Shown here piece by piece: positions 3,173 through 22,009 of a stretch of DNA of 22,359 bases (its first letter is position 1; each line of letters begins with the position of its first letter). The DNA is taken from the NCBI GenBank assembly GCA_038128265.1, contig JAYPJE010000062.1, positions 1 to 22,359 on the forward strand, read 5' to 3'. The DNA comes from Gemmatimonadota bacterium (GTDB taxonomy: Bacteria > Latescibacterota > UBA2968 > UBA8231). A model generated the notes under the pieces. That model searched no databases, had not been told where the DNA came from, and saw nothing but the letters and a program-made list of their open reading frames with translations. The position numbers were made by a program, and so were the translations under genes.

Positions 3173-3197
3173 TGGGGGCGTCGCACTGCTGGCGTGA

Positions 3198-3749: not shown

Positions 3750-3773
3750 TACACGCGTGAGTTCTCGTTGAAT

Positions 3774-4367: not shown

Positions 4368-4384
4368 CGGCGCATGCTATTGCC

Positions 4385-5413: not shown

Positions 5414-6093
5414 TACTCGGGATCGACACGTCGACGCAGGTGGGTAGCGTCGCTCTGGTAGCGCGTGAGCGCGTGGTGGTCAGCCGCTATTTTGATATCG
5501 GCTTGCAGCATTCGCAGCAGCTCTTTGCGGAAATAGAGCACGCCTGTGGTATGGCCGGTTGCTCTGTTGCAGACCTTGCGGCCATCGGCGTCACCTCCGG
5601 CCCCGGATCGTTTACGGGCGTTCGCATCGGCCTGGCCGCGGCCAAGGGCCTGTGTCTTGTCGACGACAAGCCGCTCGTGGCGGTTTCGACGCTGGCGGCA
5701 CTGGCGGCCGGCTTGCCCTGTGTTGCCGATCCGGTGTGCGCGCTGCTCGATGCGCGTAAAGAGCAGGTCTATGCGGGTTTGTACGATAATTCCGGCGGCT
5801 TGCCCGTTGAGTTGGCAGCTCCTCGGGCGGTTGATCCAAGCGTGTTGGTCGCCGAACGGGCGGGCCAGCGCACGCTCTACATCGGCGATGGGGCCGACGC
5901 CTACTCGGCCTTAATTGATGCCACTCCCGAGGCTCGTCGCGTGCCGTTTCACTGTGCCCGGCCACATGCGGCGGCAGTGGGCGCGCTCGCCTGGGAGCTG
6001 TTCGAGCGGGGTGAAGTAGCGGATCTGGATGCGATCGAGCCCGACTATTTGCGCGCGCCCGATGCAGCTATTTCCACAAAAAAGCCGCTTTGA
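5410..6093 (+). CDS. tsaB: tRNA threonylcarbamoyladenosine biosynthesis protein TsaB, 227 aa
   Basis: ILGIDTST, HSQQL, GPGSFTGVRIG, DARKEQVY, EPDYLR. The TTG start overlaps the ruvB stop (TTGA). Confidence 0.95.
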   Translation: MILGIDTSTQVGSVALVARERVVVSRYFDIGLQHSQQLFAEIEHACGMAGCSVADLAAIGVTSGPGSFTGVRIGLAAAKGLCLVDDKPLVAVSTLAALAAGLPCVADPVCALLDARKEQVYAGLYDNSGGLPVELAAPRAVDPSVLVAERAGQRTLYIGDGADAYSALIDATPEARRVPFHCARPHAAAVGALAWELFERGEVADLDAIEPDYLRAPDAAISTKKPL

Positions 6094-6109
6094 GCTAGGG
6101 CATCGACCG

Positions 6110-6559
6110 GTGCAATCGGCGTGGTCGTTTGTTCATCTCCAATGCTCCCATTTAGCCGCCGTCAGCGGGGTCGAGTGCGACTCGTTTGCCCAGCCTTGGC
6201 CCGTTGACCACTTTCGCGCGGTGCTGTCCGATGAGCATGCTCTGTGCATGGGCGTCGTCGCTCGGGACGCGTTGGTGGCCTATGCCCTCGGCCATGTAGA
6301 AGACCGCAGCTTTCACCTAGCGAGTATGGCTGTCGCGCCGACCAGTCGTCGCTGCGGCATAGGTGAAGCCCTGCTGCGCTACGCGCTAGGCGAAGCGGCA
6401 CGACGCGGATGTGCAACGTGCACCTTGGAAGTGCGCGCCGGCAATGCGGCGGCGTTGGCGCTGTATCGGAAGCTAGGGTTTGCACAGCGAAAAAGGATGG
6501 AACGCTACTACGACGAGCCGCGCGAGGATGGACTTGAACTCGCGCTGTGTCTGGCGTAG
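6110..6559 (+). CDS. rimI: RimI-type GNAT acetyltransferase (start uncertain; GTG 6110 preferred over the ORF-track start 6029)
   Basis: E..SFAQPW, MAVAPTSRRCGIGEALL (acetyl-CoA motif A), LEVRAGNAAALALYRKLGF, RYYDEPREDG. Lies directly after tsaB, a common arrangement. Confidence 0.85.
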   Translation: MQSAWSFVHLQCSHLAAVSGVECDSFAQPWPVDHFRAVLSDEHALCMGVVARDALVAYALGHVEDRSFHLASMAVAPTSRRCGIGEALLRYALGEAARRGCATCTLEVRAGNAAALALYRKLGFAQRKRMERYYDEPREDGLELALCLA

Positions 6560-6564
6560 AATTG

Positions 6565-6593
6565 TTGTCAATATTGTCTTAATTTATTATGCT
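6565..6593 (+). promoter_or_regulatory. Sigma70-type internal promoter upstream of the ABC ATPase
   Basis: TTGTCA (6565-6570), 17 nt, TATGCT (6588-6593) in an AT-rich intergenic patch. A purine-rich SD (GGGAGAGG) precedes ATG 6647. Confidence 0.65.
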
Positions 6594-6646
6594 CTTCTGG
6601 GCAAAATAGACGCGTATTTCACACTAACGGAAGCGGGAGAGGCGCG

Positions 6647-7750
6647 ATGGCCGAGGTCATTCTCAAAAGTGTGCGCAAAGTATACGATAAAGATGTCGTG
6701 GCGGTGGACGGTGCGGACATCGAGATCAAAGACAAGGAATTCGTCGTCCTCGTTGGTCCTTCGGGCTGCGGAAAGTCCACGACGCTGCGCATGATCGCCG
6801 GTTTAGAGGAAATAAGCGCGGGCGAAATTTACATAGACGGCACGCTGGTCAACGATATACCGCCGAAAGATCGCGATATCGCCATGGTCTTCCAAAACTA
6901 CGCGCTCTATCCGCATATGACGGTGTACCAGAATATGGCTTTCGGACTTAAGCTGCGGAAATATCCCAAGGACGAGATCGATGCGCGCGTCCAGGAAGCA
7001 GCCGATATCCTCGGCATCCAAGAACTGCTCGAGCGCAAGCCCAAGGCCCTGTCGGGCGGTCAGCGCCAGCGCGTGGCCGTCGGGCGCGCCATCGTGCGCA
7101 AGCCCAAGGTCTTTCTCTTTGACGAGCCGCTGTCCAATCTCGATGCCAAACTGCGCGTCCAGATGCGCGCTGAGATCAGCAAGCTGCACACGCGGCTCGA
7201 GGCCACGATGATTTACGTGACGCACGACCAGACCGAAGCCATGACGATGGGGGACCGCATCGTCGTTATGAAAGACGGCAAAATTCAGCAGATCGATGCA
7301 CCGCTCAGCCTGTATAACGAGCCGGTTAATCAGTTTGTAGCCGGCTTTATCGGCAGTCCTTCAATGAACTTTATTCGCGGTAAACTGGTGGCCAACGGCA
7401 GTGGATTGGTATTTGATGAAGGGCACCTCAAGATCGCTCTTCCCGCCAGCTACACCGACAAATTGAACGGCCATGCGGATCGGGAGGTCATCATGGGGAT
7501 TCGCCCCGAAGATATTCACGACCCCGACACGATGGCGCGCGACGTTGATACGGTGGAAATAGAGGCCAAAGTCGAGGTCGTTGAACCGATGGGCAACGAA
7601 GTCTTCCTCAATCTGACAACGGGCAAGTCCGCTTTTGTTGCGCGCATAGATCCGCGCCATATGCCGGAGGTTGAGCAGACGGTAAAACTGGCGGTAGAAG
7701 TCGACAAGGCGCATTTCTTCGACTTGGACGACGAGACAAGTCTGGTTTAA
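6647..7750 (+). CDS. Carbohydrate (CUT1) ABC transporter ATP-binding subunit, MalK/UgpC/MsmX family, 367 aa
   Basis: GPSGCGKST (Walker A), MVFQNYALYPHMTV (Q-loop), LSGGQRQRVA (signature), FLFDEPLSNLDAKLR (Walker B/D-loop), YVTHDQ, FVAGFIGSPSMN, and C-terminal TOBE/OB domains (GIRPED, VEVVEPMG). Confidence 0.95.
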   Translation: MAEVILKSVRKVYDKDVVAVDGADIEIKDKEFVVLVGPSGCGKSTTLRMIAGLEEISAGEIYIDGTLVNDIPPKDRDIAMVFQNYALYPHMTVYQNMAFGLKLRKYPKDEIDARVQEAADILGIQELLERKPKALSGGQRQRVAVGRAIVRKPKVFLFDEPLSNLDAKLRVQMRAEISKLHTRLEATMIYVTHDQTEAMTMGDRIVVMKDGKIQQIDAPLSLYNEPVNQFVAGFIGSPSMNFIRGKLVANGSGLVFDEGHLKIALPASYTDKLNGHADREVIMGIRPEDIHDPDTMARDVDTVEIEAKVEVVEPMGNEVFLNLTTGKSAFVARIDPRHMPEVEQTVKLAVEVDKAHFFDLDDETSLV

Positions 7751-7804
7751 GTCCGTCTACTGACCCGCCAAAGGGCAGTGCGGCATTGAGAAGGGGTTAG
7801 TCCT

Positions 7805-8875
7805 TTGGCGTTTGAATCGGTCGTCGGTCAAGAGCGCGCTCGGGCGATTGCCGAGGCGTGGCTTCGCTCGGGGCGCATTCCTCATGCCATACTGCTGTGT
7901 GGCCCCGAGGGTGTGGGCAAGCGCCAATTTGCCCTGGCCCTAGCCGGTGCGCTGCTCTGCGCAGAGCAGCGCATGCTCGCCTGCGGTGCGTGTCCGTCGT
8001 GCCGCCAGATGGCAGGCGGCTCCCACCCCGACCTCCATTTTCTTTTGCCTCTGCGTGCCAAGCGCGGGCGCAAATCACTCGATCCGCAAGAAATACGCGC
8101 GGCGGCGCAAGACTATCTGAGCGGAGGTGAGCTCGGAGGGCAGACCAATATCGCCATAGAGCAGCTGCGCCAGATGCAGCGCGATATGAGCTATGCGCCT
8201 AGCGCGGGCGGACGCAAAGTCGCGGTGATCTTTGCCGCCGAGCGCATGCACCCGGCCGGCGCCAATTCGCTGCTGAAAATTCTAGAAGAACCCCTGGCTG
8301 ATTCTCTTTTGATACTGGTGTCATCGGCGCCCGAACGCATGCTGCCAACGGTTCTGTCGCGCTGTCAGCGTCTGGCTCTGCGCCCCCTGAGTGCGCAGGT
8401 CGTGCGCGCTGAGCTAGAGGCCATGCGCGTGACCGGCCCAGCGTTGGAGCTGGGGGTGCGCTTGGGAGGGGGCAGCGTGCAGCGGGCCCGCGCTGCGGCA
8501 ACGGGCGCATGGGATGAAACCCGCGATCGAGTGGAGCAGTTTATCGAGGCCGGACTGCGCTGTGAGGATGCGGTATACTGGGACACGGTGGAAGAGCTGG
8601 CGGGCGACCGACCGCTGCAAGACCAGTTTTTGGAACTATGTGCGCTGTATCTGCGCGACGTTTTTCTATTGCACCACGCGCGGGACGGAGCGGGTACCAT
8701 GGTCGATCGCAGCGCGTACTGTGCACGGGTGGGAAACGCGCTGGACGGCGACTCTATCGAACGCGCCATGTTGGAGATCGATCGCGCCGCTGAAGCAATG
8801 GAGCGCAATGCGAGTCTTCAACTGGTGCTCAGCGATCTGTGGCGCTGTTTGCGACGCGCCGGCCGCGCTGCCTAA
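7805..8875 (+). CDS. holB: DNA polymerase III delta' subunit, 356 aa (TTG start)
   Basis: VVGQE, HAILLCGPEGVGK, Zn module LLC..ACGACPSC, HPDLH, ANSLLKILEEP, LPTVLSRCQ (SRC motif). Confidence 0.9.
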   Translation: MAFESVVGQERARAIAEAWLRSGRIPHAILLCGPEGVGKRQFALALAGALLCAEQRMLACGACPSCRQMAGGSHPDLHFLLPLRAKRGRKSLDPQEIRAAAQDYLSGGELGGQTNIAIEQLRQMQRDMSYAPSAGGRKVAVIFAAERMHPAGANSLLKILEEPLADSLLILVSSAPERMLPTVLSRCQRLALRPLSAQVVRAELEAMRVTGPALELGVRLGGGSVQRARAAATGAWDETRDRVEQFIEAGLRCEDAVYWDTVEELAGDRPLQDQFLELCALYLRDVFLLHHARDGAGTMVDRSAYCARVGNALDGDSIERAMLEIDRAAEAMERNASLQLVLSDLWRCLRRAGRAA

Positions 8876-9709
8876 ATGGCTTTCAGCGGCGGAGGACATC
8901 GAGCGCGCAAGCGCTTTGGACAGCACTTTTTAGTTGATCGCAGCGCCGTCGATCGAATTATTGGCTTTGTCGAGCCCGCGCCGGGTGATAAGGTGGTCGA
9001 AGTCGGTCCCGGCCGCGGTGCACTGACGCGCAAATTGTTGAGTAAACTGGGCCGGCTTACAGCGGTGGAGATCGACAGGGACCTCGCCGCCATGATGCGA
9101 GAAGCATTTTCCGACAGCTCATTCGAGCTAGTAGAAGCGGATATCTTGCAGTTGGATTGGGGCGATATGGCGGCGGATGGAGAGCGCCAAAAGCTCTTTG
9201 TCGTTGGCAACCTGCCCTATAACATAACGGCGCCGTTTCTTTTTAAGGCGCTGCTGGAAGTTGACCACCTGCGCACGGCCGTGCTCATGTTGCAGCGCGA
9301 AGTTGCGCGCAGACTGGTCGCCAGACCCGGTAACAAAGAATATGGACAAATTACTGTTATGCTGGCGATGCGCGCTGAGATCCAGTTGCTGATGGACGTA
9401 GAGCGCCGCTCCTTCCGGCCAGTGCCCGGCGTCGACTCATCTGTAATCCGCATTGACTTTTTTGAGCAGCCGCGCTTTGCCGTGCGCGACGAGCAGTGCT
9501 TTGCAACAGTGGTTCGCACGGCATTTAGTCAGCGGCGCAAGATGTTGCGCAATACGCTGCGCGGCCTCGCTTCTGCCGGCGGTCGCGACACGCTGCCGGC
9601 CATAGAGTCCGAATCGGGTATCGATCTGACGCGCCGCCCCGAGCAGCTCGGCGCGGAGGAATTCGCGCGTTTGAGCGATGCATTTTCGGCGATGCGGGAT
9701 GAGCCATAG
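8876..9709 (+). CDS. rsmA: 16S rRNA m6(2)A1518/1519 dimethyltransferase RsmA/KsgA, 277 aa
   Basis: RKRFGQHFL, VEVGPGRGALT (SAM motif), VEIDRDL, VGNLPYNIT, MLQREVARRL, FRPVPGVDS, AFSQRRKMLRN. Confidence 0.97.
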   Translation: MAFSGGGHRARKRFGQHFLVDRSAVDRIIGFVEPAPGDKVVEVGPGRGALTRKLLSKLGRLTAVEIDRDLAAMMREAFSDSSFELVEADILQLDWGDMAADGERQKLFVVGNLPYNITAPFLFKALLEVDHLRTAVLMLQREVARRLVARPGNKEYGQITVMLAMRAEIQLLMDVERRSFRPVPGVDSSVIRIDFFEQPRFAVRDEQCFATVVRTAFSQRRKMLRNTLRGLASAGGRDTLPAIESESGIDLTRRPEQLGAEEFARLSDAFSAMRDEP

Positions 9710-9711
9710 CA

Positions 9712-11682
9712 ATGGGCCGCATCGCATGGCTTATTCTTCTCGCCTTCTCCTACGGCGTCGAGGCGCAGCAAAAGTACAGCCTCAACTTCAATCGCTCTAG
9801 CACGCGCACAAAGTGGAGCCACCGCCTGCCCAGCTGGCAGTACAAGGTGCCCGTGCGCCTAGCCGCTACAGGCGATTCTACCTCCCAGCTCAGCATTTCT
9901 ACTTCGGCCAGTTTGAGCTTTACGCTCGACGAGCGCAACGACCGCAAAACTTGGCAGGACAATGCCTCTCTTGGCTCGACGGTTAACTACCCCGTCTTGG
10001 GACCCAAGGCAACGATTGGCATCGGTGCCAATATGTCGCTGCGAAGCTCCACGCTGCAAAAGCAGAAGCTGCGCAACCAGACGTTTAACTTCCGCTTTCA
10101 GTACAAGCCAATTGACAAAGGGCGCTTTGACGATCTGTCGATTAGCGTGACGCCGGGGCTCATAACAAAGACGCGCGACAGTCGCGCCAATCTGGATAGC
10201 ACCATTGAGGAGACTGGAATTCAGTACAACGCCTCGCTACGCGTGTCGCCCGAAATCAAATTGGCCGGAAAAAAGCTGGGTAACTCGCTGTCGTTTAGCA
10301 AGCGCGATAATACGCTAAAAAACAACAAAGATCGCAGCGAGAGCTTTAGCAGCAGTGCCAATTACACGCTGCCCGGCGGCGTTCGCACGAGCTTTAGCTT
10401 TTCCGAGTCTCGCTCCGAGGTCGGTATCACGCGCTCCGTCGTTGGTGAGAGTGAAGTCGACGGGGTCGTGCGCCGCGACACGAGCGTGGCGGCGGAAATT
10501 TCGCAGAGTCGCAACACGGGCTTCAGTTCGAATATCGATTTCGACGTAGGCCGCTTTAAGGTGCGCAGCAGCGCCTCGTACGGGCAAAACCAGCGCACCA
10601 ACACGGCCAGTGCCGAACAGGATCCAGGCAATCGCTACTTTGGCACGGATAGGGAGAGCCGCAGTTGGAACTGGCAATCGGAGGTTTCGGGTAAATTAGT
10701 CGAACCCGTCCTATGGAATTCCAAACTGCGCTTTGAGTCGAGTGATCAGCGCAATCTGGCTGTGCGCGTGCTCGACGTAGGACGCTGTGCCAGCCACTTT
10801 GTTCGGTCGTCGGACGGAACGTGTCGCGATCCCAGCTCTGATTTGGACAACGGCCGACTGTTTCTCAATACCTCGCTCACGTGGACGCTGACGGAAAAGC
10901 ACTCGCTCAAGCTGTCGACCTGGGCCGACATAAAGCGCGCGGAGAACCCGGGCGCACCCGAACAAAATCGCGATACCTATAGCAATAGCTTCACCCTGCG
11001 CTACGATGGATCTCTGGCCGACGATGCGCGCGTCAATATCGAAATACGCAACTCCTTTTTACACCGCATTAACATGGCGGCGACGCGTTCGGGAGACAAC
11101 TCGCGCAATCGCGATATCGTGCTCGATATCGGCAGTAGCTACCAGCGCTTGGGGATTAGCATATCGCATAATTTCAGCATTTCGGCCAAGCGGACAATTT
11201 TTGACTTTGATCGCGAACTCAATCGAACCACCTCATCGCGCAAGAGCAATATTCGGCGCGGTTGGAGTATGAATCACACGGCAAACCGCAAGATACTGGC
11301 CAATTTGCGCCTGAACGGGCGCTACTCGTACTCGGCGGATGATTTCGGCACGTTGGTCGTAGAGAACGGGGCGCAAATCGTCGAAGAGGACAACAATCGT
11401 CACAGCGTTGGCGTTGGGCTGTCGTACTCGCCCATTCAGGCGTTGTCTCTTACGACGTCCTATAACTTTTTGCTGGACCGCCGCTGGGATCACGAATATG
11501 CGGGAGGGCAAGAAGCGCGCGTGCAGGACACTGGGCGCCGCAATAGAAACCGCTCGCTTAGCTTTAACGTTAGCTACTCGCCGACAAACAACCCCAACCA
11601 ACTGTCGCTGCGCGCGAGCCGCTCGCGGCAGCGCAGCGGCACATTCGACACATTTAACGTTACATACTCGCGAACTTTATAG
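9712..11682 (+). CDS. Hypothetical secreted protein, probable outer-membrane beta-barrel, 656 aa
   Basis: Signal peptide MGRIAWLILLAFSYGVEA|QQ. S/T/N/R-rich with many alternating amphipathic strands (LSISTSASLSFTL, FNFRFQY, FTLRYDG, VGVGLSYSP, LSFNVSYSP). Ends in a beta-signal-like FNVTYSRTL. Starts 2 nt after the rsmA stop. Confidence 0.65.
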   Translation: MGRIAWLILLAFSYGVEAQQKYSLNFNRSSTRTKWSHRLPSWQYKVPVRLAATGDSTSQLSISTSASLSFTLDERNDRKTWQDNASLGSTVNYPVLGPKATIGIGANMSLRSSTLQKQKLRNQTFNFRFQYKPIDKGRFDDLSISVTPGLITKTRDSRANLDSTIEETGIQYNASLRVSPEIKLAGKKLGNSLSFSKRDNTLKNNKDRSESFSSSANYTLPGGVRTSFSFSESRSEVGITRSVVGESEVDGVVRRDTSVAAEISQSRNTGFSSNIDFDVGRFKVRSSASYGQNQRTNTASAEQDPGNRYFGTDRESRSWNWQSEVSGKLVEPVLWNSKLRFESSDQRNLAVRVLDVGRCASHFVRSSDGTCRDPSSDLDNGRLFLNTSLTWTLTEKHSLKLSTWADIKRAENPGAPEQNRDTYSNSFTLRYDGSLADDARVNIEIRNSFLHRINMAATRSGDNSRNRDIVLDIGSSYQRLGISISHNFSISAKRTIFDFDRELNRTTSSRKSNIRRGWSMNHTANRKILANLRLNGRYSYSADDFGTLVVENGAQIVEEDNNRHSVGVGLSYSPIQALSLTTSYNFLLDRRWDHEYAGGQEARVQDTGRRNRNRSLSFNVSYSPTNNPNQLSLRASRSRQRSGTFDTFNVTYSRTL

Positions 11683-12685: not shown

Positions 12686-14518
12686 ATGCGCACTGCCAGA
12701 ACGATTAGCACGCTACTCGTTGCGCTGGTTGCAACGGTTCATGCACAAGAGGATGGGGCCTGGAGTGCCGTGCAAAATATTCTCATGAATACGCAGGATA
12801 TCGTCGTACTCGACGGCACGGAGAAGGCGCCGCTGCGCCATACCGGTGAGGGCGATCCACAGTATGGCGATTGGATGGTGCGCCACATGCTGTCCGATCC
12901 GCAGAGCTTCAATCCGTATACGTCGAGCGATGCCGGCGCTTCCACCGTGATGCAGTATATCTTTGACACGCTGCTCTATGCCGAGAACGAGCCGCCCTAC
13001 GAGCTCAAGGGCAAAGTCGCTAAGAGCTATCCGCAGATTTCCGAAGACAAGCTGTCCTACACGTTTGAGCTGAGAGAGGATGTGTCTTTTTCCGATGGGC
13101 AACCGCTAACGGCCGAGGATGTGCTGTTCAGTATGAAAGTCATCCAGAATCCGCGCGTCTTGGCACCGCATATGCGCAACTACTATTCAGCGGTCAAAAA
13201 TGTCGTTAAGGATAGTGAGCGGTCGATTACGTTCGTGTGCGACGAGCCCTATTTCCGCAACGACCTTTCGCTCGGTGCCTTCGAAATTTTGCCCAAGCAT
13301 TTTTACGATCCGGAAGGATTGCTGGATCCCGTTGATATCGCCTCACTCATCGACGGTTCGTGGGAGACCGGTCCGCACAAAGAGCGCATCGAACGTTTTG
13401 CCGAACAGTTTAATCAGGATTTCAATCGCAAAATCATGGGCTCGGGTCCGTATAGAGTCGACGACATTGAGCGCGATATTGTCACACAGCAAAAAGTCGT
13501 TCTGACGCGCAATGCCGATTATTGGGGAAATGGGTATGAGGACTTGCTGGCATCGGGCTATGTCGACAAGATGGTTTTTAAGATCATCAACAATACCGAT
13601 GCGGCCTTTATCGAGCTGACCAACGGCAACTTAGACTATCATGCGCTGCGACCGCTCGAGTTTAAGGAGAAGAGCTGGTCCGCCGATTTCAACAAACGCT
13701 TTCTCAAAGGGGTTCAATACGGGGGTGGGTATACGTACCTGGGTTGGAATAACGCCCATCCTATTTTCGCAGATCGGCGCGTGCGCCAGGCCATGACGCA
13801 TTTGACCGATCGCCAGAGTATGGTGGAAAATCTGCTTTTTGGCCTGGCCGAAACGGTTGAGGGGCCTATCAGCAATTTCCGTCCGGAGTACAACCATGAA
13901 CTGCAGCCGTACGGCTACGACTACGAGCGCGCGCTCGACCTGCTCGATGAGGCCGGGTGGGGCGACGCCGATGACGACGGCATTCTCGACAAAGAGATCG
14001 ACGGTGAGAAGGTGGATTTTCGCTTTGAACTGCTCATCAATTCCGGCAACCAGATCCGCAAGGATATTGCCCTGACCCTGCAGAGCGAGTTGGCCGATGT
14101 AGGCATCGATTGCCAGGTGCGCGAGCTCGACTGGTCTATTTTTTTGCAGCGCGTTAAGAGCAAAGACTTCGCTGCGATGGTGCTCGGCTGGAGCAGCGGC
14201 GCAAAATTTGCCCCCGATGTGTACCAGATCTGGCACTCGTCGCAGGCCGAAGACCAGGGCTCGAATGCGATCAGTTTTATACACGCTGAAGCCGATAGCC
14301 TATTAGAGTCCTACAGGCGCGAGTTCGATATGGACAAGCGCATCGCGCTGTACAAGCGCTTTCAAGAAATAGTGTACGAAGAACAGCCTTACACCTTTCT
14401 ATGGAAGTCGCGCGTAGCACAGGCCTATAGCCGCCGTTTTGCCGGGGTGAACTGGTATCCTGCTGGTGCTGAATTGGCCGAATGGTGGGTCGATCAGGAC
14501 GATCGTATCTACCGCTAA
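12686..14518 (+). CDS. Family-5 (OppA/AppA/DppA-like) ABC solute-binding protein, 610 aa from ATG 12686
   Basis: SD AAGGAG before ATG 12686. Signal peptide MRTARTISTLLVALVATVHA|QED with no lipobox. Motifs DPQSFNP, YTFELREDVSFSDGQPLTAEDVLFS, MGSGPY, FADRRVRQAM, ALDLLDEAGW, YQIWHSSQ, LYKRFQEIVYEEQPYTFL. Confidence 0.92.
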   Translation: MRTARTISTLLVALVATVHAQEDGAWSAVQNILMNTQDIVVLDGTEKAPLRHTGEGDPQYGDWMVRHMLSDPQSFNPYTSSDAGASTVMQYIFDTLLYAENEPPYELKGKVAKSYPQISEDKLSYTFELREDVSFSDGQPLTAEDVLFSMKVIQNPRVLAPHMRNYYSAVKNVVKDSERSITFVCDEPYFRNDLSLGAFEILPKHFYDPEGLLDPVDIASLIDGSWETGPHKERIERFAEQFNQDFNRKIMGSGPYRVDDIERDIVTQQKVVLTRNADYWGNGYEDLLASGYVDKMVFKIINNTDAAFIELTNGNLDYHALRPLEFKEKSWSADFNKRFLKGVQYGGGYTYLGWNNAHPIFADRRVRQAMTHLTDRQSMVENLLFGLAETVEGPISNFRPEYNHELQPYGYDYERALDLLDEAGWGDADDDGILDKEIDGEKVDFRFELLINSGNQIRKDIALTLQSELADVGIDCQVRELDWSIFLQRVKSKDFAAMVLGWSSGAKFAPDVYQIWHSSQAEDQGSNAISFIHAEADSLLESYRREFDMDKRIALYKRFQEIVYEEQPYTFLWKSRVAQAYSRRFAGVNWYPAGAELAEWWVDQDDRIYR

Positions 14519-14528
14519 AAACGATTCG

Positions 14529-14963
14529 GTGCACGGGGCATATGCAGCGGATGGACCACTCTCTTGGACGGTACATCCGCTGGTGCAGGAAAGGGCGGGC
14601 AAGACGTTGGCCTTGGTCGGCACGGTGGGCGCGACGTGCTGTGCCGTCGCGCTTAGCTTTGGGCACATTGGGTACGGCATCCTGTCGCTGTGCATACTCG
14701 TCGGTTCACTGGCGAGCTATTTTTTCCCGTCGCATTACACGCTCGACGGCGCTGGCATTTCTCGCGCGCTGCTAGGGCGGCGGAGCGCTCGATCGTGGTC
14801 CGAGTTCCGGCGCGTGGATATGCGCGACAACGGACTCTTTCTCAGCACATTCGCACGTCCCAGTCGCCTCGACTCATTTCGCGGCGTATTTCTTCCATTT
14901 CACAAAAACCGCGATCAAGTCGTATATTACGTCCAACGCCATGTCGATAATAGAGCACATTAG
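14529..14963 (+). CDS. Hypothetical membrane protein, about 144 aa (two TM helices plus a beta-rich, possibly PH-like C-terminal domain); GTG start inferred
   Basis: Hydrophobic pair TLALVGTVGATCCAVALSFG / IGYGILSLCILVGSLASYFF, then PSHYTLDGAGI..RSWSEFRRV..GLFLSTF..LDSFRGVFLPF. Starts 10 nt after the SBP stop and overlaps the next gene. Confidence 0.7.
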   Translation: MHGAYAADGPLSWTVHPLVQERAGKTLALVGTVGATCCAVALSFGHIGYGILSLCILVGSLASYFFPSHYTLDGAGISRALLGRRSARSWSEFRRVDMRDNGLFLSTFARPSRLDSFRGVFLPFHKNRDQVVYYVQRHVDNRAH

Positions 14964-15282
14964 AGCACAGTGGCAGCACGCCTTTGCCATCGCCAACTCG
15001 GGTGAGGCATGGGACGATGCCGACCGGGAACTGGTCGACAAATTGGCCTCGTTTATCGTGCGGCGTGGTTTGAGCGTGCCGGCGGTTATGGTCCTCGAAT
15101 CGAGCCGCCCCATCAACTTTCTCGGCAGCCAGCTGCTCGCCTTTCTCGAGCCCTTTGCCACGCTGGTTTTTTCACGGGTAGAATACGCGCGTTTTGTGCG
15201 CCTGCTGGAGCAGCGCGATAGCGTCGATCTCATTATGGACGCCATCGCGAAATCGGAAAGCGAAACAAACGCACATGGATAA
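14941..15282 (+). CDS. Small helical hypothetical protein, 113 aa
   Basis: Overlaps both neighbours (23 nt and 8 nt). Protein-like amphipathic sequence LVDKLASFIVRRGLSVPAVMVLESSRPINFLGSQLLAFLEPF..YARFVRLLEQRDSVDLIMDAI. Confidence 0.75.
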   Translation: MSIIEHIRAQWQHAFAIANSGEAWDDADRELVDKLASFIVRRGLSVPAVMVLESSRPINFLGSQLLAFLEPFATLVFSRVEYARFVRLLEQRDSVDLIMDAIAKSESETNAHG

Positions 15283-17068
15283 AATTGACGTAGTCATCGC
15301 GACGGACTGCGGCAGCACGACGACCAAGGCCATTCTAATAGAGAAAAAGGCCGACGGGTACCATCAGACGTTTCGCGGTGAGGCGCCCACCACGGTAGAA
15401 GCGCCTTTCGAAGACGTGACGCGCGGCGTGCTCAATGCCATACAGGAGGTAGAGGAGCTCTCCGGCCGGCAGATTCTCGACGGTGAACGCATTATCACGC
15501 CAGCGGACGGGCAGCGCGGTGTCGACATATACATCTCTACTAGCAGTGCCGGTGGCGGACTGCAAATGGTCGTTTCGGGCGTCGTCAAGTCGATGACGGG
15601 TGACAGCGCGCAGCGCTGTGCGCTGGGGGCCGGTGCCATCGTTATGGACGTGCTGGCGGCCAACGACGGCCGGCGGCCACATCAGAAAATTGAGCGCATT
15701 CGCCAGCTCCGTCCCGACATGGTGCTGCTGGCCGGTGGCACCGACGGCGGTACGGTAAGCCACGTAGTCGAACTGGCAGAATACGTTGGCGCTGCCGATC
15801 CCAAGCCGCGCTTTGGCAGCGGCTTTAAGCTGCCGGTCATTTACGGTGGCAATACGGAAGCGCGTGCAGAAGTCGAAGCCGTGCTGGGCGAGAAGACGGC
15901 ATTGACCCTGACGGAGAATATTCGCCCCATATTGGAGCGGGAGAATTTGGGGCCTGCGCGTCAGGTTATTCACGACCTGTTCTTGGAACACGTAATGGCG
16001 CAGGCGCCGGGCTATAGAAAGCTGATGGACTGGACCGGTGCGCCGATTATGCCGACGCCGGGCGCGGTCGGCGAGATCATGCAGACGATTGCTCGCCAGA
16101 TGGGGATCAACGTGGTAGGCGTCGATATCGGCGGTGCGACTACAGACGTATTCAGCGTGTTCTCCGAGGTGTTCAACCGCACGGTCAGCGCTAACTTGGG
16201 TATGTCCTACAGTATCTCCAACGTCTTGGCCGAAGCGGGACTGGAACAGATTCTGCGCTGGGTGCCCTTCCAAATCGAAGAGGCCGACCTGCGCGATCGC
16301 ATCAAGAACAAGATGATTCGCCCCACGACGATCCCGCAGCTTTTACAAGAGTTACAGGTCGAACAGGCCATCGCACGCGAGGCGCTGCGCCTGGCTTTTG
16401 TCCAGCACCGCGAATTGGCCGTTGGGCTCAAAGGCGTGCAAACCGAACGCACGCTCTCAGATGTGTTTGACCAGAACGACGAGGCGGATAGTCTGGTGCA
16501 GATGATGGATCTCGACCTCCTCGTTGGCAGCGGCGGCGTCCTGTCGCACGCGCCGCGGCGCGCGCAGTCGGCGGCTATGCTCATCGATGCATTCCAACCC
16601 GAGGGCGTAACGCGCTTGGCCGTAGACAGCATTTTTATGATGCCGCATTTGGGCGTGCTGTCCACGGTAAACGAAGAGGCGGCAACGGAGGTGTTTGAGC
16701 GGGACTGCCTAATATACTTAGGCACTTGCGTTGCTCCTAAGGGATCCGGCAAGGCGGGCGAAACGTGTCTCAACTTCTCTGTTGACCTGCCCGCCGGGCG
16801 GCGCGAAGGGGCGCTGTGCGTTGGCGAATTGCACCTGCTCGAATTGAGTGCCGACGAGGAAGTTGAACTCGTGCTCACGCCCGCGCGCGACTGGGACGTT
16901 GGCGGCGGTCCCGGACAGGAGGTACGCACGGCCGTGCGCGGGGGCGTCGTCGGCCTCATCATAGACGGTCGGGGGCGGCCCATCCAAATTGCCGAGTCGG
17001 AAGGGGAACGCCTGGCGCAAATTGCAGGCTGGCATCGCACGATGAACCTCTACGGCGGAGAGCGATAA
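15275..17068 (+). CDS. GlmL/MutL (glutamate mutase L)-like ASKHA-superfamily ATPase, 597 aa from ATG 15275
   Basis: Phosphate-1 IATDCGSTTTKA, APTTVE, STSSAGGGLQM, CALGAGA, PDMVLLAGGTDGG, IYGGN, MPTPGAV, phosphate-2 VGVDIGGATTDVFS, RTVSANLGM and adenosine-type LLVGSGGVLSH are the recognisable GlmL family motifs. Confidence 0.88.
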   Translation: MDKIDVVIATDCGSTTTKAILIEKKADGYHQTFRGEAPTTVEAPFEDVTRGVLNAIQEVEELSGRQILDGERIITPADGQRGVDIYISTSSAGGGLQMVVSGVVKSMTGDSAQRCALGAGAIVMDVLAANDGRRPHQKIERIRQLRPDMVLLAGGTDGGTVSHVVELAEYVGAADPKPRFGSGFKLPVIYGGNTEARAEVEAVLGEKTALTLTENIRPILERENLGPARQVIHDLFLEHVMAQAPGYRKLMDWTGAPIMPTPGAVGEIMQTIARQMGINVVGVDIGGATTDVFSVFSEVFNRTVSANLGMSYSISNVLAEAGLEQILRWVPFQIEEADLRDRIKNKMIRPTTIPQLLQELQVEQAIAREALRLAFVQHRELAVGLKGVQTERTLSDVFDQNDEADSLVQMMDLDLLVGSGGVLSHAPRRAQSAAMLIDAFQPEGVTRLAVDSIFMMPHLGVLSTVNEEAATEVFERDCLIYLGTCVAPKGSGKAGETCLNFSVDLPAGRREGALCVGELHLLELSADEEVELVLTPARDWDVGGGPGQEVRTAVRGGVVGLIIDGRGRPIQIAESEGERLAQIAGWHRTMNLYGGER

Positions 17069-18189
17069 TGGCTCACGCCTATACACCGGGTCTGCGCGTC
17101 ACGCCGTATGCGGTCGTGCGCAAGGATCGAAAGCTGCCTCTCCAGGGACAGGTTGTCGTAGCTCTGGGCGATGTGGTGCGTCGCGACCAAGTGGTCGCAC
17201 GGACCGACCTGCCCGGCGACGTAGTGGCGCTCAACCTGGTAAACCGGTTGGGATGTGCGCCGGCCGAAGTGCCGCGGTATATGCTGCACAAAGAGGGCGA
17301 GATGGTGCGCGAGGGCGAGCCGCTGGCCGAGACGCAGCCGTTTATCAAGTGGTTTAAAACTACGGTCAATGCGCCCGCTACAGGGGTGGTCGAGAGCGTG
17401 TCTGCGGTTACGGGCCAGGTCATATTGCGCAAAGAGCCCCGTCCAGTAGAGGTGTTGGCCTATGTGGATGGTCAGGTCGTCGAGATCTTTGAGAGTGAAG
17501 GCGTCAGCGTTGAGACGCGCGGTGCCTACATGCAGGGCATATTCGGCGTCGGCGGTGAGTGCTGGGGGCCCCTGCATGTGGCGGTCGGGTCGCCGGAGGA
17601 GTTATTGACGGAACTGGGCGCAGAATGCGCCGGCAAGATCGTCGTCGTGGGCAGCTTGATTACGCAAGACCTGATTGAGCGCGCGCGAGAGATGGGTGTG
17701 ATTGGACTGGTCGGCGGCGGTCTGCGCGACCAGGATTTGCGCGCGCTATTGGGCTATGATCTCGGCGTGGCGATTACCGGCGACGAAGATATTGGGCTCA
17801 CGGTGGTTGTGACGGAGGGTTTTGGCGAGATCGCCATCGCCCATAAGACATTCGATATCCTGAAGGCATGCGAGGGCAAGGAGACGTCGATTTCGGGTGC
17901 GACCCAGATTCGCGCTGGCGTGCTGCGCCCGGAGATTATCGTGCCCGATGTGGAGGGAGACCAACGTCGATCCGAAGCCGACGGAGGGGGTAAGCAGGGG
18001 ATGGATATTGGTGATCTGCTGCGCGTTATCCGCGTGCCGTATTTCGGGCGCATTGGCCGCGTTAGCGCGCTGCCGGCCGAGCTCCAAGAGGTTGAATCCG
18101 GCGCGCTTGTGCGCGTGCTTGAAGTCGAGTTTGAAGGCGGTGAGAAGGTCGTCGTGCCGCGTGCCAACGTCGAGATGATTGAAGAATGA
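17068..18189 (+). CDS. Soluble hypothetical protein, 373 aa (barrel-sandwich-hybrid motifs, alpha/beta domain, C-terminal KOW/SH3-like domain)
   Basis: TAATG coupling to the glmL-like stop. Hybrid half-motifs VVVALGDVVRRDQVVA, MLHKEGEMVREGEPLA, VNAPATGVVESV, VLAYVDGQVVEI. GKIVVVG..ERAREMGVIGLVGGG. C-terminal IGDLLRVIRVPYFGRIGRV..VEFEGGEKVVVPRANVE. Confidence 0.85.
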   Translation: MAHAYTPGLRVTPYAVVRKDRKLPLQGQVVVALGDVVRRDQVVARTDLPGDVVALNLVNRLGCAPAEVPRYMLHKEGEMVREGEPLAETQPFIKWFKTTVNAPATGVVESVSAVTGQVILRKEPRPVEVLAYVDGQVVEIFESEGVSVETRGAYMQGIFGVGGECWGPLHVAVGSPEELLTELGAECAGKIVVVGSLITQDLIERAREMGVIGLVGGGLRDQDLRALLGYDLGVAITGDEDIGLTVVVTEGFGEIAIAHKTFDILKACEGKETSISGATQIRAGVLRPEIIVPDVEGDQRRSEADGGGKQGMDIGDLLRVIRVPYFGRIGRVSALPAELQEVESGALVRVLEVEFEGGEKVVVPRANVEMIEE

Positions 18190-18196
18190 GGACCTT

Positions 18197-19414
18197 ATGC
18201 TGAACAAGGCACTGCTGTGGGCGATTGCACTTGCCGCGCTATCCTCTGTTGCAGCCGAAGGCCAGGCCCAACTGCCGCCCATCGAGGGCTTTGAGGCGTT
18301 TGATACCCCCAGCGATGCCGGGGGCAGCATCACGTTGATATGGCCTCGGATTGCCGATGCGCCGGCGGGTTCGACCTATCGGGCGTTTATTGCCGCAAAG
18401 CGCGAAGGGCCGTACTACTTGGCGGCTGAGACTGCTAGCGATGCCAGTCTACAGTCTGAAGATCCGGGGGCTTTTGGCTACGGCGACGAAGCGAAAGAGG
18501 CCCACTTTTTGCGGATTTCTCAGTATGAAACGGACGGTGGCACGATATCGCTGGAAAACGACGCGACCTATCACGTGCGGTTGGAACTGCACCACGGCAA
18601 GGTCTCGACGCGCACGGCAGTGATTACTGCTTCGGCCGAGGGCAACTACTTTAACTGGGAAAAGCTCAACAACGCTGCGCTGGGTTTGCTGCTGTCGGTG
18701 CTTATTATTGGCTACATCAGCCTAGCGCGTCGGCGTGCCCTGTACATCCGCCGGATTGGCGGGTTGGAGGCGCTCGACGAGGCGTTGGGACGCGCAACGG
18801 AAATGGGCAAGCCGGTGCTCTTTATACACGGCCTGCGCGATATGAGCCAAATTTCGACGATTGCCGCCGTTAATATTCTCGGGCGCGTGGCTCGGCGTAC
18901 CGCCGAATACGATACGGCTCTGCGCGTGGTTGCGCCCGATCCCGTCGTGATGTCCGTTAGCCAGGAAACGGTGCAGGCCTCGTACTTTGAGGCTGGTCGC
19001 CCCGACGCGTTTAATCCCGATCACGTATTTGTCGCCGGCACCGAGCAGTTTAGCTATGCGGCGGCTACGGAGGGCATCATGGTGCGCGAGCGGCCGGCCG
19101 CCCACATAATGATGGGGTATTTCTACGCCGAATCGCTGCTGTTGGCCGAGACGGGTTCGACGACGGGGGCGATTCAAATCGCCGGCACGGACGCCTTCAC
19201 GCAATTGCCGTTCTTCGTGACGACCTGCGACTATACGCTGCTCGGCGAAGAGCTCTATGCAGCCAGCGCCTACCTGTCGCGCGAACCCAAACTGCTGGGG
19301 AGTTTAAAGGGACAGGACGCGGGCAAAGCGATTCTAATCGCCGTCATTGTCTTGGGCTCGCTGTTGGCGACACTCGATATTCCGTTTCTCACTCACTTGT
19401 TTACCCCGCATTGA
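18197..19414 (+). CDS. Membrane protein, 405 aa: signal peptide, FN3-like extracytoplasmic domain, TM helix, DUF6754-like alpha/beta domain, C-terminal TM helix
   Basis: GAGGA before ATG 18197. Signal MLNKALLWAIALAALSSVAA|EG. AFDTPSDAGGSITLIW..TYRAF..LENDATYHVRL has an FN3-like W/Y/L..Y pattern. TM AALGLLLSVLIIGYISL. IRRIGGLEALDEALGRATEMGKPVLF..QLPFFVTTCDYTLLGEELYAASAYL is recognised from memory as DUF6754. Confidence 0.8.
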   Translation: MLNKALLWAIALAALSSVAAEGQAQLPPIEGFEAFDTPSDAGGSITLIWPRIADAPAGSTYRAFIAAKREGPYYLAAETASDASLQSEDPGAFGYGDEAKEAHFLRISQYETDGGTISLENDATYHVRLELHHGKVSTRTAVITASAEGNYFNWEKLNNAALGLLLSVLIIGYISLARRRALYIRRIGGLEALDEALGRATEMGKPVLFIHGLRDMSQISTIAAVNILGRVARRTAEYDTALRVVAPDPVVMSVSQETVQASYFEAGRPDAFNPDHVFVAGTEQFSYAAATEGIMVRERPAAHIMMGYFYAESLLLAETGSTTGAIQIAGTDAFTQLPFFVTTCDYTLLGEELYAASAYLSREPKLLGSLKGQDAGKAILIAVIVLGSLLATLDIPFLTHLFTPH

Positions 19415-19424
19415 GGAGTGCGCG

Positions 19425-20093
19425 ATGATTTTTTTCAGCCGCATGCTGCCCGTAGTCGTCGCCTTCTGCTTTGGTATACTGGGTATTGGCATTTACTACG
19501 TGCCGCACGCAGCGGCGCAGAATCTGGAGCGCGAACTAGCCCTGTGGCTGCGCATCGTCTTTGCCTTCTCCTATTTGTTGGGTCTATACAGTCTGCTCAA
19601 CCTGCACTGGCAGCGCATTCGCCAGCGCGTTGCGGGGTGGGGATACAGCGTCGTCGTATACATCGGCTTTGGTCTTATGATGCTCTTTGTTGTTTACAAC
19701 GACGGTCAGGGCCCATTTACTGCCCAGGCTGAGGGGACGGCAGCCGAAAATGGCTATCAGTGGCTCTTTGAATACGTGCACGTAGCCTGCTCGTCGACCA
19801 TGTTTTCCATTCTCGCCTTTTTTATTGCCTCTGCGGCCTACCGCACGTTTCGCGCGCGCACGCCCGAGGCGGCCCTGCTGCTGGTAGCGGCGGTCGTGGT
19901 GATGCTGGGGCGCGTTCCCATCGGCGCCTATATATCCGAATTTGTTCCCGCGGCGGCGGACTGGCTGCTCAACGTACCCAACTTAGCGGCCAAGCGGGGC
20001 ATCTTGCTGGGCGTGTCGTTGGGCGCCATTGCCACTTCGCTGCGCATCATCTTCGGTATTGAGCGTTCCTATTTGGGAGGAGGCGAAGAATGA
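19425..20093 (+). CDS. Hypothetical polytopic membrane protein, 222 aa, about 6 TM
   Basis: SD GAGGAG (19413-19418) before ATG 19425. Six hydrophobic segments with basic loops QRIRQR and RTFRART. The stop overlaps the next start (ATGA). Confidence 0.85.
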   Translation: MIFFSRMLPVVVAFCFGILGIGIYYVPHAAAQNLERELALWLRIVFAFSYLLGLYSLLNLHWQRIRQRVAGWGYSVVVYIGFGLMMLFVVYNDGQGPFTAQAEGTAAENGYQWLFEYVHVACSSTMFSILAFFIASAAYRTFRARTPEAALLLVAAVVVMLGRVPIGAYISEFVPAAADWLLNVPNLAAKRGILLGVSLGAIATSLRIIFGIERSYLGGGEE

Positions 20094-20905
20094 TACAGTG
20101 GCTGATGAATATAGATCGGCGCATCATCTTTGTCTTTGTATTTGCTGGCGTTGCGCTGCCCCTCTTAGCCAATGTCTTTCTGCCGATAAAACCCACGCGC
20201 GATGTGGTGGCCGTCTACGAGCAGCTAGAGAAAGTGGCAGAAGAAAATGGCATCGTCTTGCTCAGTTTCTCGTACGGCGCCAGCACCGTGCCGGAGATGC
20301 AGCCCATGGCCAAGGCTATTCTGCGCCACTGCTTTAGCCGCGATATCAAGGTCGTCGCCGTTTGCCTGTGGCCCGAAGCGCCGGGCCTAGCCCAGCAAGC
20401 GCTCGAAGAGATCGGAGCGGAATTCGGCAAAACCTACGGCGAGGACTATGCATTTCTCGGCTATAAACCGGGCAATTTTAGCGTCGTGCTCAATATGGGG
20501 CAGGATTTCCACGATGCCTTTCCACAGGACAACTGGGGCACGCCCATCGAAGATGTGCCGCTGACGCGCGATCTGCGCACGCTGCGGGACTTCGACTTCG
20601 TATTCGATTTGGCCGCGGGCGACTCTATTGAGTTTTGGTGGATTCCCTATGGACAAGAGAAGTACGGCTTTCCCTTTGCCGGTGGGTGCACCGCCGTCAT
20701 GGCGCCCGATCTATTTCCCTTTTTGCAGTCGCGGCAAATGGTGGGACTTCTGGGTGGGTTGGCCGGTGCGGCGGAGTACGAAACGCTGGTTGGCAAGCAG
20801 GATAAGGCGACGGCTGGTATGAGTGCTCAGTCGATGGCCCACCTGATCATTGTCGCATTTATCGTTTTTGGCAATATGGCTTTTTTCCTCTCTCGCCGGC
20901 GCTAA
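20090..20905 (+). CDS. Hypothetical membrane protein, 271 aa: N-terminal TM, alpha/beta domain, C-terminal TM
   Basis: SD GGAGGAGG upstream and ATGA overlap. DRRIIFVFVFAGVALPLL (TM), then alternating beta/alpha elements (IVLLSFSYG, IKVVAVCLW, YAFLGYKPG, FVFDLAAG), then AHLIIVAFIVFGNMAFFLSRRR. Confidence 0.87.
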   Translation: MIQWLMNIDRRIIFVFVFAGVALPLLANVFLPIKPTRDVVAVYEQLEKVAEENGIVLLSFSYGASTVPEMQPMAKAILRHCFSRDIKVVAVCLWPEAPGLAQQALEEIGAEFGKTYGEDYAFLGYKPGNFSVVLNMGQDFHDAFPQDNWGTPIEDVPLTRDLRTLRDFDFVFDLAAGDSIEFWWIPYGQEKYGFPFAGGCTAVMAPDLFPFLQSRQMVGLLGGLAGAAEYETLVGKQDKATAGMSAQSMAHLIIVAFIVFGNMAFFLSRRR

Positions 20906-20928
20906 TACGCAGTCAGGGAGACTCTAAT

Positions 20929-21651
20929 TTGACGCGCGATACCTACGTATTTCTGGCTCTGGTACTGACCTTTGCCGTCGTGAATGGCGTGCTGCTGGCC
21001 AGCGGATCCCTCGCTGCCGACTGGAATAGTCTGGGAATCATGGTGGCTGCCGGTCTTACGCTGGCGCTCTATAGTTTCCTCTACAAGGACAATCCGCTGT
21101 TTAAAGCGGCCGAAAATATCTACGTCGGCGTAGCGGCGGCCTATGTTTTCGGCCAGTACTGGTATCAGACGATTTACGGTGAAATTTTTATTCGACTAAA
21201 AGCGCTGGGCGGGGAGGATAGCACGCAGGGCGATTGGTGGCTGCTGGCGCCAACGCTGCTGGGGCTGCTGATGCTGACGCGCTTCTCGCGGCGCTTTGGC
21301 TGGCTGAGCCGTTTTTCCTTTGCCTTCTTTGTCGGGCTGGGGGCCGGTCTGACGATACCGCGGACGATTTCCTCCTTTATCCTGGCCCAGGTTGAGCCGA
21401 CGCTGCAGCCGCTGAGCTGGAGCTTCGACGGCCTTAACTTGCTGATTATTTTGGTCGGCGTGGTTTCCGTGCTCGTGTATTTCTTCTTTTCTGTGGAGCA
21501 TTCGGGCGCCGTCGGCAAGGTGTCGCGCGTGGGTATATGGTTTCTCATGGTGTCGTTTGGCGCTTCGTTCGGCTATACGATTATGGCCAGGCTGTCCCTG
21601 CTGATCGGACGCGTCACATTCCTCTTAGACGATTGGCTTCACTTGATGTGA
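20929..21651 (+). CDS. Hypothetical polytopic membrane protein, 240 aa, about 7 TM (TTG start)
   Basis: GGGAG SD upstream of TTG 20929. Seven hydrophobic segments with basic loops KDNPLFK, RFSRRFGWLSR and GKVSR. Last gene before an AT-rich intergenic region. Confidence 0.85.
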   Translation: MTRDTYVFLALVLTFAVVNGVLLASGSLAADWNSLGIMVAAGLTLALYSFLYKDNPLFKAAENIYVGVAAAYVFGQYWYQTIYGEIFIRLKALGGEDSTQGDWWLLAPTLLGLLMLTRFSRRFGWLSRFSFAFFVGLGAGLTIPRTISSFILAQVEPTLQPLSWSFDGLNLLIILVGVVSVLVYFFFSVEHSGAVGKVSRVGIWFLMVSFGASFGYTIMARLSLLIGRVTFLLDDWLHLM

Positions 21652-21768
21652 GCGTCTTTTTATAGTGGGCTGATAAATTCTCCCGAAGCGCGTTAACAGA
21701 TGCAAAATGGGTGAGGTCCGTTTTTTTTTATTGAATTTTTTTTTAAATTTGGCATCTTCTACTGACTT

Positions 21769-21798
21769 TTGGTAAATGACCGGCATTAACAATAGAAT
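21769..21798 (+). promoter_or_regulatory. Candidate sigma70 promoter for the TonB-dependent-receptor-like gene
   Basis: TTGGTA (21769-21774), 18 nt, TAGAAT (21793-21798), with AT-rich T-tracts upstream (21721-21750). Confidence 0.45.
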
Positions 21799-22009
21799 AA
21801 GGAAACCGCTTTCTCTACTCACTCCATCAAACCAAACATCGTTTCACGTGGGCGATGTGACCGCAGTCTGAAGGGCATCTTCCCAGCGCGCATGCGCTGT
21901 GCGTGCGCGACGGAGAGAATCGTTCGATGATTGGGTCCGTGAGATGGATAATCTGCATATCAACAACTACCCGTGATCTACACTTACTCCTGTCAGAAAG
22001 GAGATTTGC

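Follow-up and report, generated by a model that had tools for sequence, protein, structure and literature searches.

The DNA analyzed here, hereafter the window, is a 22,359-nt stretch of contig JAYPJE010000062.1 (assembly GCA_038128265.1), and its positions 14529–21651 carry a block of eight open reading frames, labeled A to H and all on the plus strand, that encode an apparently newly recognised membrane system. A preliminary description, based on the sequence alone, had proposed that these genes form one co-directional operon with overlapping or narrowly spaced junctions, and recomputing the coordinates confirmed the shared orientation as well as every junction listed. Genes A and B overlap by 23 nt, B and C by 8 nt, and C and D by 1 nt (TAATG at 17066–17070), followed by gaps of 7 nt between D and E and 10 nt between E and F, a 4-nt overlap of F and G (ATGA at 20090), and a gap of 23 nt between G and H. 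Upstream, a binding-protein gene stops 10 nt short of gene A, while downstream the AT-rich end of the block was also confirmed, with a G+C content of 0.593 across the block versus 0.349 in 21652–21800. Scans for promoters and terminators stayed near chance (10 versus 5.2 ± 2.2 and 12 versus 11.9 ± 4.2, respectively). All eight genes are single-copy in the window's own genome, where searches with domain profiles found no paralog, and the nearest related loci are labeled Latescibacterota or Gemmatimonadetes.

Gene C (15275–17068, 597 aa) encodes an ATPase with the ASKHA (actin/Hsp70) fold from the MutL/GlmL branch, which is the predicted motor, and gene D (17068–18189, 373 aa) a protein composed of a barrel-sandwich hybrid, a probable swivelling beta/beta/alpha domain and a C-terminal KOW region. 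Four membrane proteins follow. E (18197–19414, 405 aa) has a signal peptide-like start, a variable FN3-like domain predicted to lie outside, a transmembrane helix, a six-stranded Rossmann-like DUF6754 domain predicted to be cytoplasmic and a second transmembrane helix; F (19425–20093, 222 aa) is a six-helix membrane protein whose N-terminus is predicted inside; G (20090–20905, 271 aa), which belongs to no Pfam family, holds a six-stranded Rossmann-like domain, predicted to face outward, between two transmembrane helices; and H (20929–21651, 240 aa) has a six-helix core with its N-terminus predicted outside, preceded in this lineage by an extra N-terminal helix. The block opens with two small genes: A (14529–14963, 144 aa), an accessory gene whose product has two hydrophobic stretches and then a probable bacterial PH-type domain, and B (14941–15282, 113 aa), whose small product has a mildly hydrophobic middle and lies outside known families. 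Pfam scans of the window copies gave no family at E ≤ 0.1 for A, B, G and H, and only DUF2569 (E 0.05) for F. None of the eight products contained a Walker A, LSGGQ, CxxC, CxxCH or DxHxxG motif, which agrees with the earlier statement that the block lacks ABC (ATP-binding cassette) signatures, Fe-S cysteine clusters and the CxxCH and DxHxxG motifs.

The genes form a real, widespread and highly conserved membrane system. A check of synteny and co-occurrence across GTDB, which the preliminary description had suggested, bore this out on both counts. Among the 50 GTDB loci found with G, 42 preserve the complete eight-gene order, and the other eight consist of three partial close loci, two of which end at a contig edge, and five distant genomes in which the stretch retrieved held part of the set. 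In metagenomes (best 80 of 593 matches), contigs of sufficient length show the order B-C-D-E-F-G-H or C-D-B-E-F-G-H. Over 197 loci, which were chosen by G, E, C or H themselves and include many kin that are not independent, F-G and G-H were adjacent 177 times each, E-F 159, C-D 96, D-E 93, B-C 82 and A-B 61 times. We then considered presence by genome, using an 80-genome set composed of 16 E-negative genomes of the window's own phylum, 61 genomes of a third phylum, and genomes G151, G152 and G154. Gene E was found in 16 of these and H in those same 16, whereas C was detected in 15 of the 16 and in none of the 64 others; D was present in 21 of 22 genomes that carry E and in none of 14 that lack it. 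As kin genomes are not independent, we give these co-occurrences without a statistic.

With respect to its distribution, the DUF6754 domain was detected in 131 of the 151 genomes surveyed from the window's own phylum (Latescibacterota) versus 0 of 14 control genomes, in all 41 genomes of a phylum labeled Zixibacteria (2–6 copies each), and in 13 of 61 genomes of the third phylum. Within Latescibacterota, the system is cleanly absent from 14 genomes of three families. Clusters of D and G in the ESM Atlas extend to Planctomycetota, Chloroflexota, Fidelibacterota and, more distantly, Bacillota. These surveys, which covered bacteria, support the statement in the preliminary description that DUF6754-centred clusters occur in diverse uncultured bacteria. 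The plasmids and viral contigs that we searched held no homolog.

What the preliminary description had overlooked is that the system consists of two modules, a single C-D pair alongside many E-F-G-H cassettes. The E-F-G-H set occurs alone and in tandem arrays, reaching about 8 copies (8 DUF6754 matches in G152), and in some genomes E is located apart from F-G-H. D was single in all six Zixibacteria genomes tested that hold 4–6 DUF6754 copies, and genomes G151, G152 and G154 each have one full-length C, not counting a divergent extra C-D fusion in G152. This second fusion (L187:8159–11005) lacks the C tail and the KOW region of D, and no membrane cassette was found within the 19 kb around it. 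Local variants of the gene order were also seen. At L066:6964–8606 and L067:6996–8638, G alone is tandemly duplicated (E-F-G-G-H) and the copies have diverged. Two Zixibacteria genomes carry a gene of 255–261 aa, of unassigned family, between C and D (L152:7356–8138 and L155:6757–7521), a third has an 8xMP-like gene (PF24838, below cut-off) in this position (L157:7433–7840), and a 167-aa gene of unassigned family lies between F and G at L171:9787–10287.

Having delimited the two modules, we turned to the C-D pair. C matches the Pfam family MutL (PF13941) with an E-value of 2e-128 over residues 7–478, and its C-terminus extends about 120 residues beyond this MutL/GlmL-type region. It nevertheless missed all three NCBIfam cut-offs, with 220/475, 206/600 and 156/204 bits for GlmL, Or-4 and TIGR01319 (NCBIfam/TIGRFAM models NF040745, NF040744 and TIGR01319). 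Among C homologs, the phosphate-1, phosphate-2 and connect motifs of ASKHA proteins are present in 100 of 101 and the adenosine motif in 94 of 101; Hydantoinase_A was matched weakly by 43/43 C members, and FtsA by a single one of them (E 0.15). The glutamate mutase E subunit (PF06368) had no match in the window's own genome, which is 84% complete, and there were no B12 mutase genes among the recurring neighbours or the 69 neighbours scanned. The motifs and scores support the earlier claim of an ASKHA ATPase, with C read as intact but distinct from true GlmL. Databases name proteins of the C type 'glutamate mutase L'.

D appears to be the fixed partner of C, as judged by fusion and gene order. 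Indeed, 37 of 38 long D homologs are natural C-D fusions, many of them from Marinimicrobia by source name. Hybrid-motif matches of the window copy were all below the Pfam threshold, but across 60 members at E ≤ 1 we found RnfC_N in 47, KOW in 23 and PA in 8 (best PA E-value 2.6e-4). The N-terminal hybrid region weakly matched RnfC_N and NQRA_N, and D matched RraA with an E-value of 0.065. Conserved motifs of D are present in 99–109 of 109 homologs, and in the 60-member alignment His3 is kept in 93% and Lys97 in 95%, with no conserved Cys anywhere in D and no conserved His in its middle domain. Residues 91–97 of D form the tip of the hybrid-motif hairpin, where exposed aromatic residues and Lys97 take the place of the biotin/lipoyl motif; this tip may contact the membrane or a partner. 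A search of the ESM Atlas with D matched only its own family, and a profile comparison between C and D gave no significant match.

The two small genes are less constant. Gene A is the least constant member, although it also occurs beyond Latescibacterota (L164, L173, L175, L177 and L181–L184). The preliminary description had called its product a protein with two transmembrane helices; two hydrophobic stretches can indeed be discerned by eye, but a hydropathy scan resolved one peak. The domain bPH_6 (PF10756) was matched by 4 of 17 A homologs (E 1.6e-4 to 0.02) and not by the window copy. Gene B lies either before C or between D and E (adjacency B-C 82, B-E 14, D-B 10), and its 11 homologs gave no Pfam match at E ≤ 0.05.

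The membrane cassette comprises four proteins. Averaged hydropathy resolved two helices each in G and the core of E, while F has six and H seven, in line with the earlier assignment of two proteins with an alpha/beta domain between transmembrane helices and two with six to seven such helices. E matches DUF6754 (PF20539) with an E-value of 4e-113, and its N-terminal FN3-like domain, predicted to lie outside the membrane, is variable (fn3 at E 0.006 in one of four N-terminal regions scanned). A structural model of the E core (pLDDT 89.9, pTM 0.83) consists of a helix, a six-stranded alpha/beta domain and a second helix. For F and G we modelled a natural F-G fusion, P0272 (pLDDT 82.9, pTM 0.76), whose F part ranges from pLDDT 52 to 91 by block; in this model the elements of G follow the same order as in E, with one insertion after strand 3. 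As the model had no control and this fusion is found on one contig, we did not count it as evidence of binding. A G-H fusion occurs in a Planctomycetaceae protein on 9 contigs, and its one added helix preserves the orientation of H. A candidate D-E fusion (P0330) was set aside as a probable artefact, since its E part is truncated and it occurs on one contig. Several homologs carry add-ons, namely acidic repeats in an outside loop of F, HEAT repeats in G or fused to E, and ankyrin repeats fused to F (P0308, P0212, P0311 and L185:9382–12534).

The topology of these proteins was predicted from the distribution of lysine and arginine (K+R), averaged over alignments. The bias was 4.0 after helix 1 of E, whereas for G it was 3.1 ahead of the first helix and 2.1 behind the second, so that the domain of E is predicted inside, that of G outside, the N-terminus of F inside and that of the H core outside. 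Large natural insertions sit in loops predicted to be outside, in agreement with this topology: 38 of 41 long F homologs have an insertion near residue 100, and about 26 of 150 listed G homologs have one near residues 110–145 or 235, one of which is a CARDB domain. The equal layout of E and G on opposite sides of the membrane, together with the opposite orientation of F and H, suggests two opposed halves (E+F and G+H). The preliminary description had already spoken of a pseudo-symmetric core, and the predicted layout and sidedness favor this part of it, but homology between the halves was not recovered by profile comparison against reversed controls. When only the domains of E and G were aligned, the E-value was 0.034 versus 0.061 and 0.13 for the controls, with the first three strands in register.

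Conservation within the cassette is uneven. Paralogs (32 pairs from 6 genomes) share an identity of 0.53 in E, 0.44 in H, 0.43 in F and 0.37 in G, which makes G the most variable subunit among them, and over 140 cassettes 70 of 180 columns of the E domain are conserved at 90% or more, versus 25 of 213 columns of the G domain. A conserved inner domain of E and a variable outer domain of G would fit a common dock inside and differing ligands outside. The G family comprises 5397 representatives at 50% identity. Conserved residues include a Cys in the E core (Cys197, invariant in 64 members), an Arg and a Ser/Thr within or at the membrane in F, an invariant Glu62 and a near-invariant Arg221 in H, and, on the outside of G, the near-invariant polar residues E69, D119, D147, T201, Q216, Y230 and E231. 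Covariation between subunits over the 140 cassettes (effective number 70) ranked impossible inside-outside pairs among the top, and pairs within chains were noisy.

Structure and sequence searches assigned the cassette to no characterised family. The best whole-domain neighbours of E were the sirtuin 1s7g (Z 11.5, versus 10.3 for the next entry; root-mean-square deviation 3.4 over 139 aligned residues), transhydrogenase domain III (Z 9.7) and CODH epsilon (Z 9.2), which we take to share one DHS-like NAD/FAD-binding fold. This fold is also among the neighbours of G, as are the RCK domains of TrkA, KtrA/C and MthK (Z 8.7–9.8 for E and G). The identities are, however, only 8–12%, the scores lie near those of unrelated Rossmann folds, and the domain here sits between two membrane helices; as the scores are so close together, we assigned no function from them. 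E and G have 11 of their top 50 neighbours in common, among them MT0777, transhydrogenase domain III and RCK domains, but since these neighbours are generic and tied, the overlap shows little. In Foldseek searches, which had been suggested earlier and were run with the E and F-G models, E gave one match at E ≤ 0.001 (TM-score 0.26) and F-G none. Profile searches of PDB sequences, made for the six products C to H, gave nothing better than E 0.057; the F profile reached E 2.3 at best and the H profile had no match. Large mixed alignments containing fusion proteins were misaligned, and a 60-row set with correct alignment was selected. In the ESM Atlas, G matched only hypothetical clusters. The membrane system could be assigned to no family tested, and the earlier statement that no characterised complex has this composition accords with the family tests, which returned no match to one.

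Given this architecture, we tentatively propose that A to H encode an undescribed ATP-driven importer with an inverted, two-halved core and a shared reactivase-like ATPase, a reading that we consider quite possible though just short of probable. Slightly more doubtful is the broader proposal that it represents a new class of primary active transporters, in which an actin/Hsp70-fold ATPase motor would drive a four-subunit inverted core that carries one Rossmann-like domain per membrane face and C-D would be shared among cassettes. The system would then comprise the membrane cassette E-F-G-H and the cytoplasmic ASKHA pair C-D, with A and B as small helpers. The variable outer domain of G, together with F and H, might capture the solute outside, and the opposed halves E+F and G+H would provide alternating access. 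C-D would dock on the highly conserved inner domain of E, spend ATP to pry the solute loose or to reset the core, and move from cassette to cassette.

The proposed role of C-D is modelled on reactivases and its mobility on transporters of the energy-coupling factor (ECF) type. One source, which cites work on the diol dehydratase factor, describes MutL/GlmL as a chaperone that reactivates glutamate mutase (PMC4682846), and a second describes the alpha subunit of the dehydratase reactivase as a Hsp70-like ATPase with a swivelling domain that drives the release of a tightly bound cofactor with ATP (PMC7674605). C resembles GlmL, MutL and Or-4 in its ASKHA fold, its motifs and its Pfam match; it differs in its sub-threshold scores, in the additional C-terminal residues, in being paired or fused with D, and in travelling with a membrane cassette instead of a mutase. 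Similarly, C and D would provide the two domain types reported for diol and glycerol dehydratase reactivases (DdrAB and GdrAB), yet the partner here would be a membrane complex, the swivelling domain of D is weakly supported, and the listed Pfam matches of C and D included no dehydratase-reactivase family. As for group II ECF transporters, published accounts describe one ATP-hydrolysing module that is common to several scattered membrane modules (PMC7755397, PMC4820897), which parallels the one motor module and many membrane modules per genome seen here. The ECF motors are, however, ABC ATPases, whereas Walker A and LSGGQ are absent here, and the exchangeable unit in the present system would consist of four proteins that place soluble domains on either side of the membrane. 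A further likeness concerns Rnf and Nqr, given the weak RnfC_N and NQRA_N matches of D and the oppositely oriented membrane pair, as RnfA/E is also such a pair. Here, though, CxxC motifs and conserved Cys in D are absent, an ATPase stands in place of redox centres, and F and H members did not match the Rnf/Nqr membrane families.

Several observations weigh against the importer proposal. The swivelling domain of D is indicated by weak matches (PA and RraA), the structure searches with E and G led to generic Rossmann folds with tied scores (Z 8–11), and profile comparisons of E with G and of F with H did no better than reversed controls. No transporter fold was among the matches listed in the structure searches, which covered F only inside the F-G model, where G dominated, and hence do not exclude one. 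The link between C-D and E is drawn from gene order and co-occurrence, and one genome (G240) holds a cassette without D or a full C, with only a short C remnant beside E. No recurring substrate gene was found beside the cassettes, and the 69 neighbours scanned from 35 loci of other phyla share no function across lineages. Moreover, the near-universal single copy in Latescibacterota (131/151) suits a housekeeping role as well as it does nutrient uptake.

Among other explanations, a transmembrane group transfer seems unlikely, but deserves consideration. C would activate a small molecule with ATP, D would carry it, and E-F-G-H would pass it to an acceptor outside with G as the catalytic subunit, by analogy with the Dlt system or with group translocation by the phosphotransferase system (PTS); C would then be like ASKHA kinases and the A subunits of hydantoinase/oxoprolinase. 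The weak Hydantoinase_A match throughout the C members would fit such chemistry, as would the polar residues on the outside of G, the conserved His3 and Lys97 of D, and one Zixibacteria cassette that lies beside PTS enzyme I at four loci. This neighbour is limited to one lineage, however, and G varies more than any other subunit. Neither a donor-making nor an acceptor gene recurs nearby, the middle domain of D offers no conserved His, and the biotin/lipoyl attachment motif is absent from its hybrid hairpin. In addition, PTS EII families were matched by none of the eight genes and were not among the matches listed for F and H members. As putative phosphocarrier residues, such a scheme would have His3 of D and Cys197 of the E core. 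A transmembrane receptor, which we rate as distinctly unlikely, would explain why many cassettes accompany one C-D pair and why outside decorations vary, since each cassette would sense a different ligand through G and the outer domains and signal through E to a single C-D switch. The nucleotide-binding neighbours of E (sirtuin, transhydrogenase domain III and CODH epsilon) and the KOW domain that ends D could be accommodated in such a scheme. Against it, neither the set nor its recurring neighbours contain an output domain, be it a kinase, a cyclase, a DNA-binding domain or another type, and the twelve core helices of F and H, with their conserved buried polar residues, exceed what a receptor needs.

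PilM, FtsA and MreB are ASKHA scaffolds or switches bound to inner-membrane partners, which raises the idea, in our view an improbable one, of a machine for cell-envelope assembly or export with C acting on such partners. Near-universal single-copy presence in Latescibacterota, presence in all Zixibacteria-phylum genomes and the FN3-like and CARDB domains outside would suit this role, but C belongs to the MutL/hydantoinase branch, with FtsA matched by one of 43 members at E 0.15, genes for pili, division or the cell wall do not recur in the neighbourhood, and the patchy presence in the third phylum, together with the clean absence from three Latescibacterota families, argues against an essential function. 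The RCK domains that tie with other folds in the structure searches for E and G could also point to an ion channel or transporter gated by RCK-like domains, such as Ktr or Trk. We consider this very improbable, given that the ties are generic, that RCK rings are cytoplasmic while the G domain is predicted outside, and that neither F nor H shows a consistent match to any channel family. Finally, the Pfam MutL match and the database name might make C a genuine GlmL/MutL protein that reactivates a B12-dependent mutase, with the other genes unrelated or supplying B12. This account is hardly tenable and already largely refuted by the missed NCBIfam cut-offs, by the failure to find a glutamate mutase E subunit in the genome or a mutase among the neighbours, and by the ties of C to D and the cassette.

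We found no description of a DUF6754-ASKHA system in the literature searched, which did not extend to supplementary tables and most subscription journals, so that a passing mention may exist. To our knowledge, no characterised transporter is energised by an ASKHA ATPase, and the importer reading would therefore add a mechanism by which ATP is used to move solutes. If it is true, GlmL and other reactivases of B12 mutases would represent a minor side branch within a far larger family of motors. In either case, a large unannotated system is present in most Latescibacterota and in all Zixibacteria searched, both of them abundant lineages without cultured members about whose nutrition little is known, and the naming of many of its proteins as 'glutamate mutase L' is a misannotation that could be corrected. 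The natural C-D fusions and the compact cassettes should make it amenable to heterologous expression and cryo-EM.

We lastly examined the neighbourhood for hints on the solute. The gene upstream of A (12686–14518, plus strand) encodes a family 5 binding protein (PF00496) outside the core, which belongs to a complete and separate peptide-type ABC importer; the permeases of this importer lie on contig C100 of the window's own genome and inside the operon at four related loci (L068, L069, L071 and L075). The preliminary description had taken the flanking ilvE, binding protein and TonB-dependent receptor genes to indicate peptide or amino-acid uptake. These three genes were found, respectively, in 29, 32 and 24 of the 70 loci L002–L071, in 1, 2 and 0 of 80 metagenome loci, many of which are short, and in none of 46 loci from other phyla. 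The flanks are thus lineage-specific and the binding protein has its own permeases, which weakens that inference; however, a peptide ABC system is also combined with the operon in a second lineage (L144), whose binding protein is 39% identical, which keeps peptides among the candidates. Peptides or amino-acid derivatives as the solute are accordingly a weakly supported guess.

A few other neighbours deserve mention. In four Zixibacteria loci (L154, L156, L160 and L161), a cassette with a short E lies directly downstream of PTS enzyme I, which was scanned in L154, L160 and L161. Within the window, the ORFs at 171–9709 form a presumed housekeeping run that would encode an elongation factor G-like protein, YebC, RuvC, RuvA, RuvB, TsaB, RimI, HolB, KsgA and a MalK-type ABC ATPase without partners nearby. 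Positions 9712–11682 encode a protein of 656 aa that begins like a signal peptide and matched no Pfam family; it is probably an outer-membrane barrel, and 29 related loci keep it upstream of ilvE. Downstream of H, a 420-aa gene is found at L128:11970–13229 and at 24 other metagenome loci that seemingly represent one lineage, and its product may resemble AmmeMemoRadiSam protein B.

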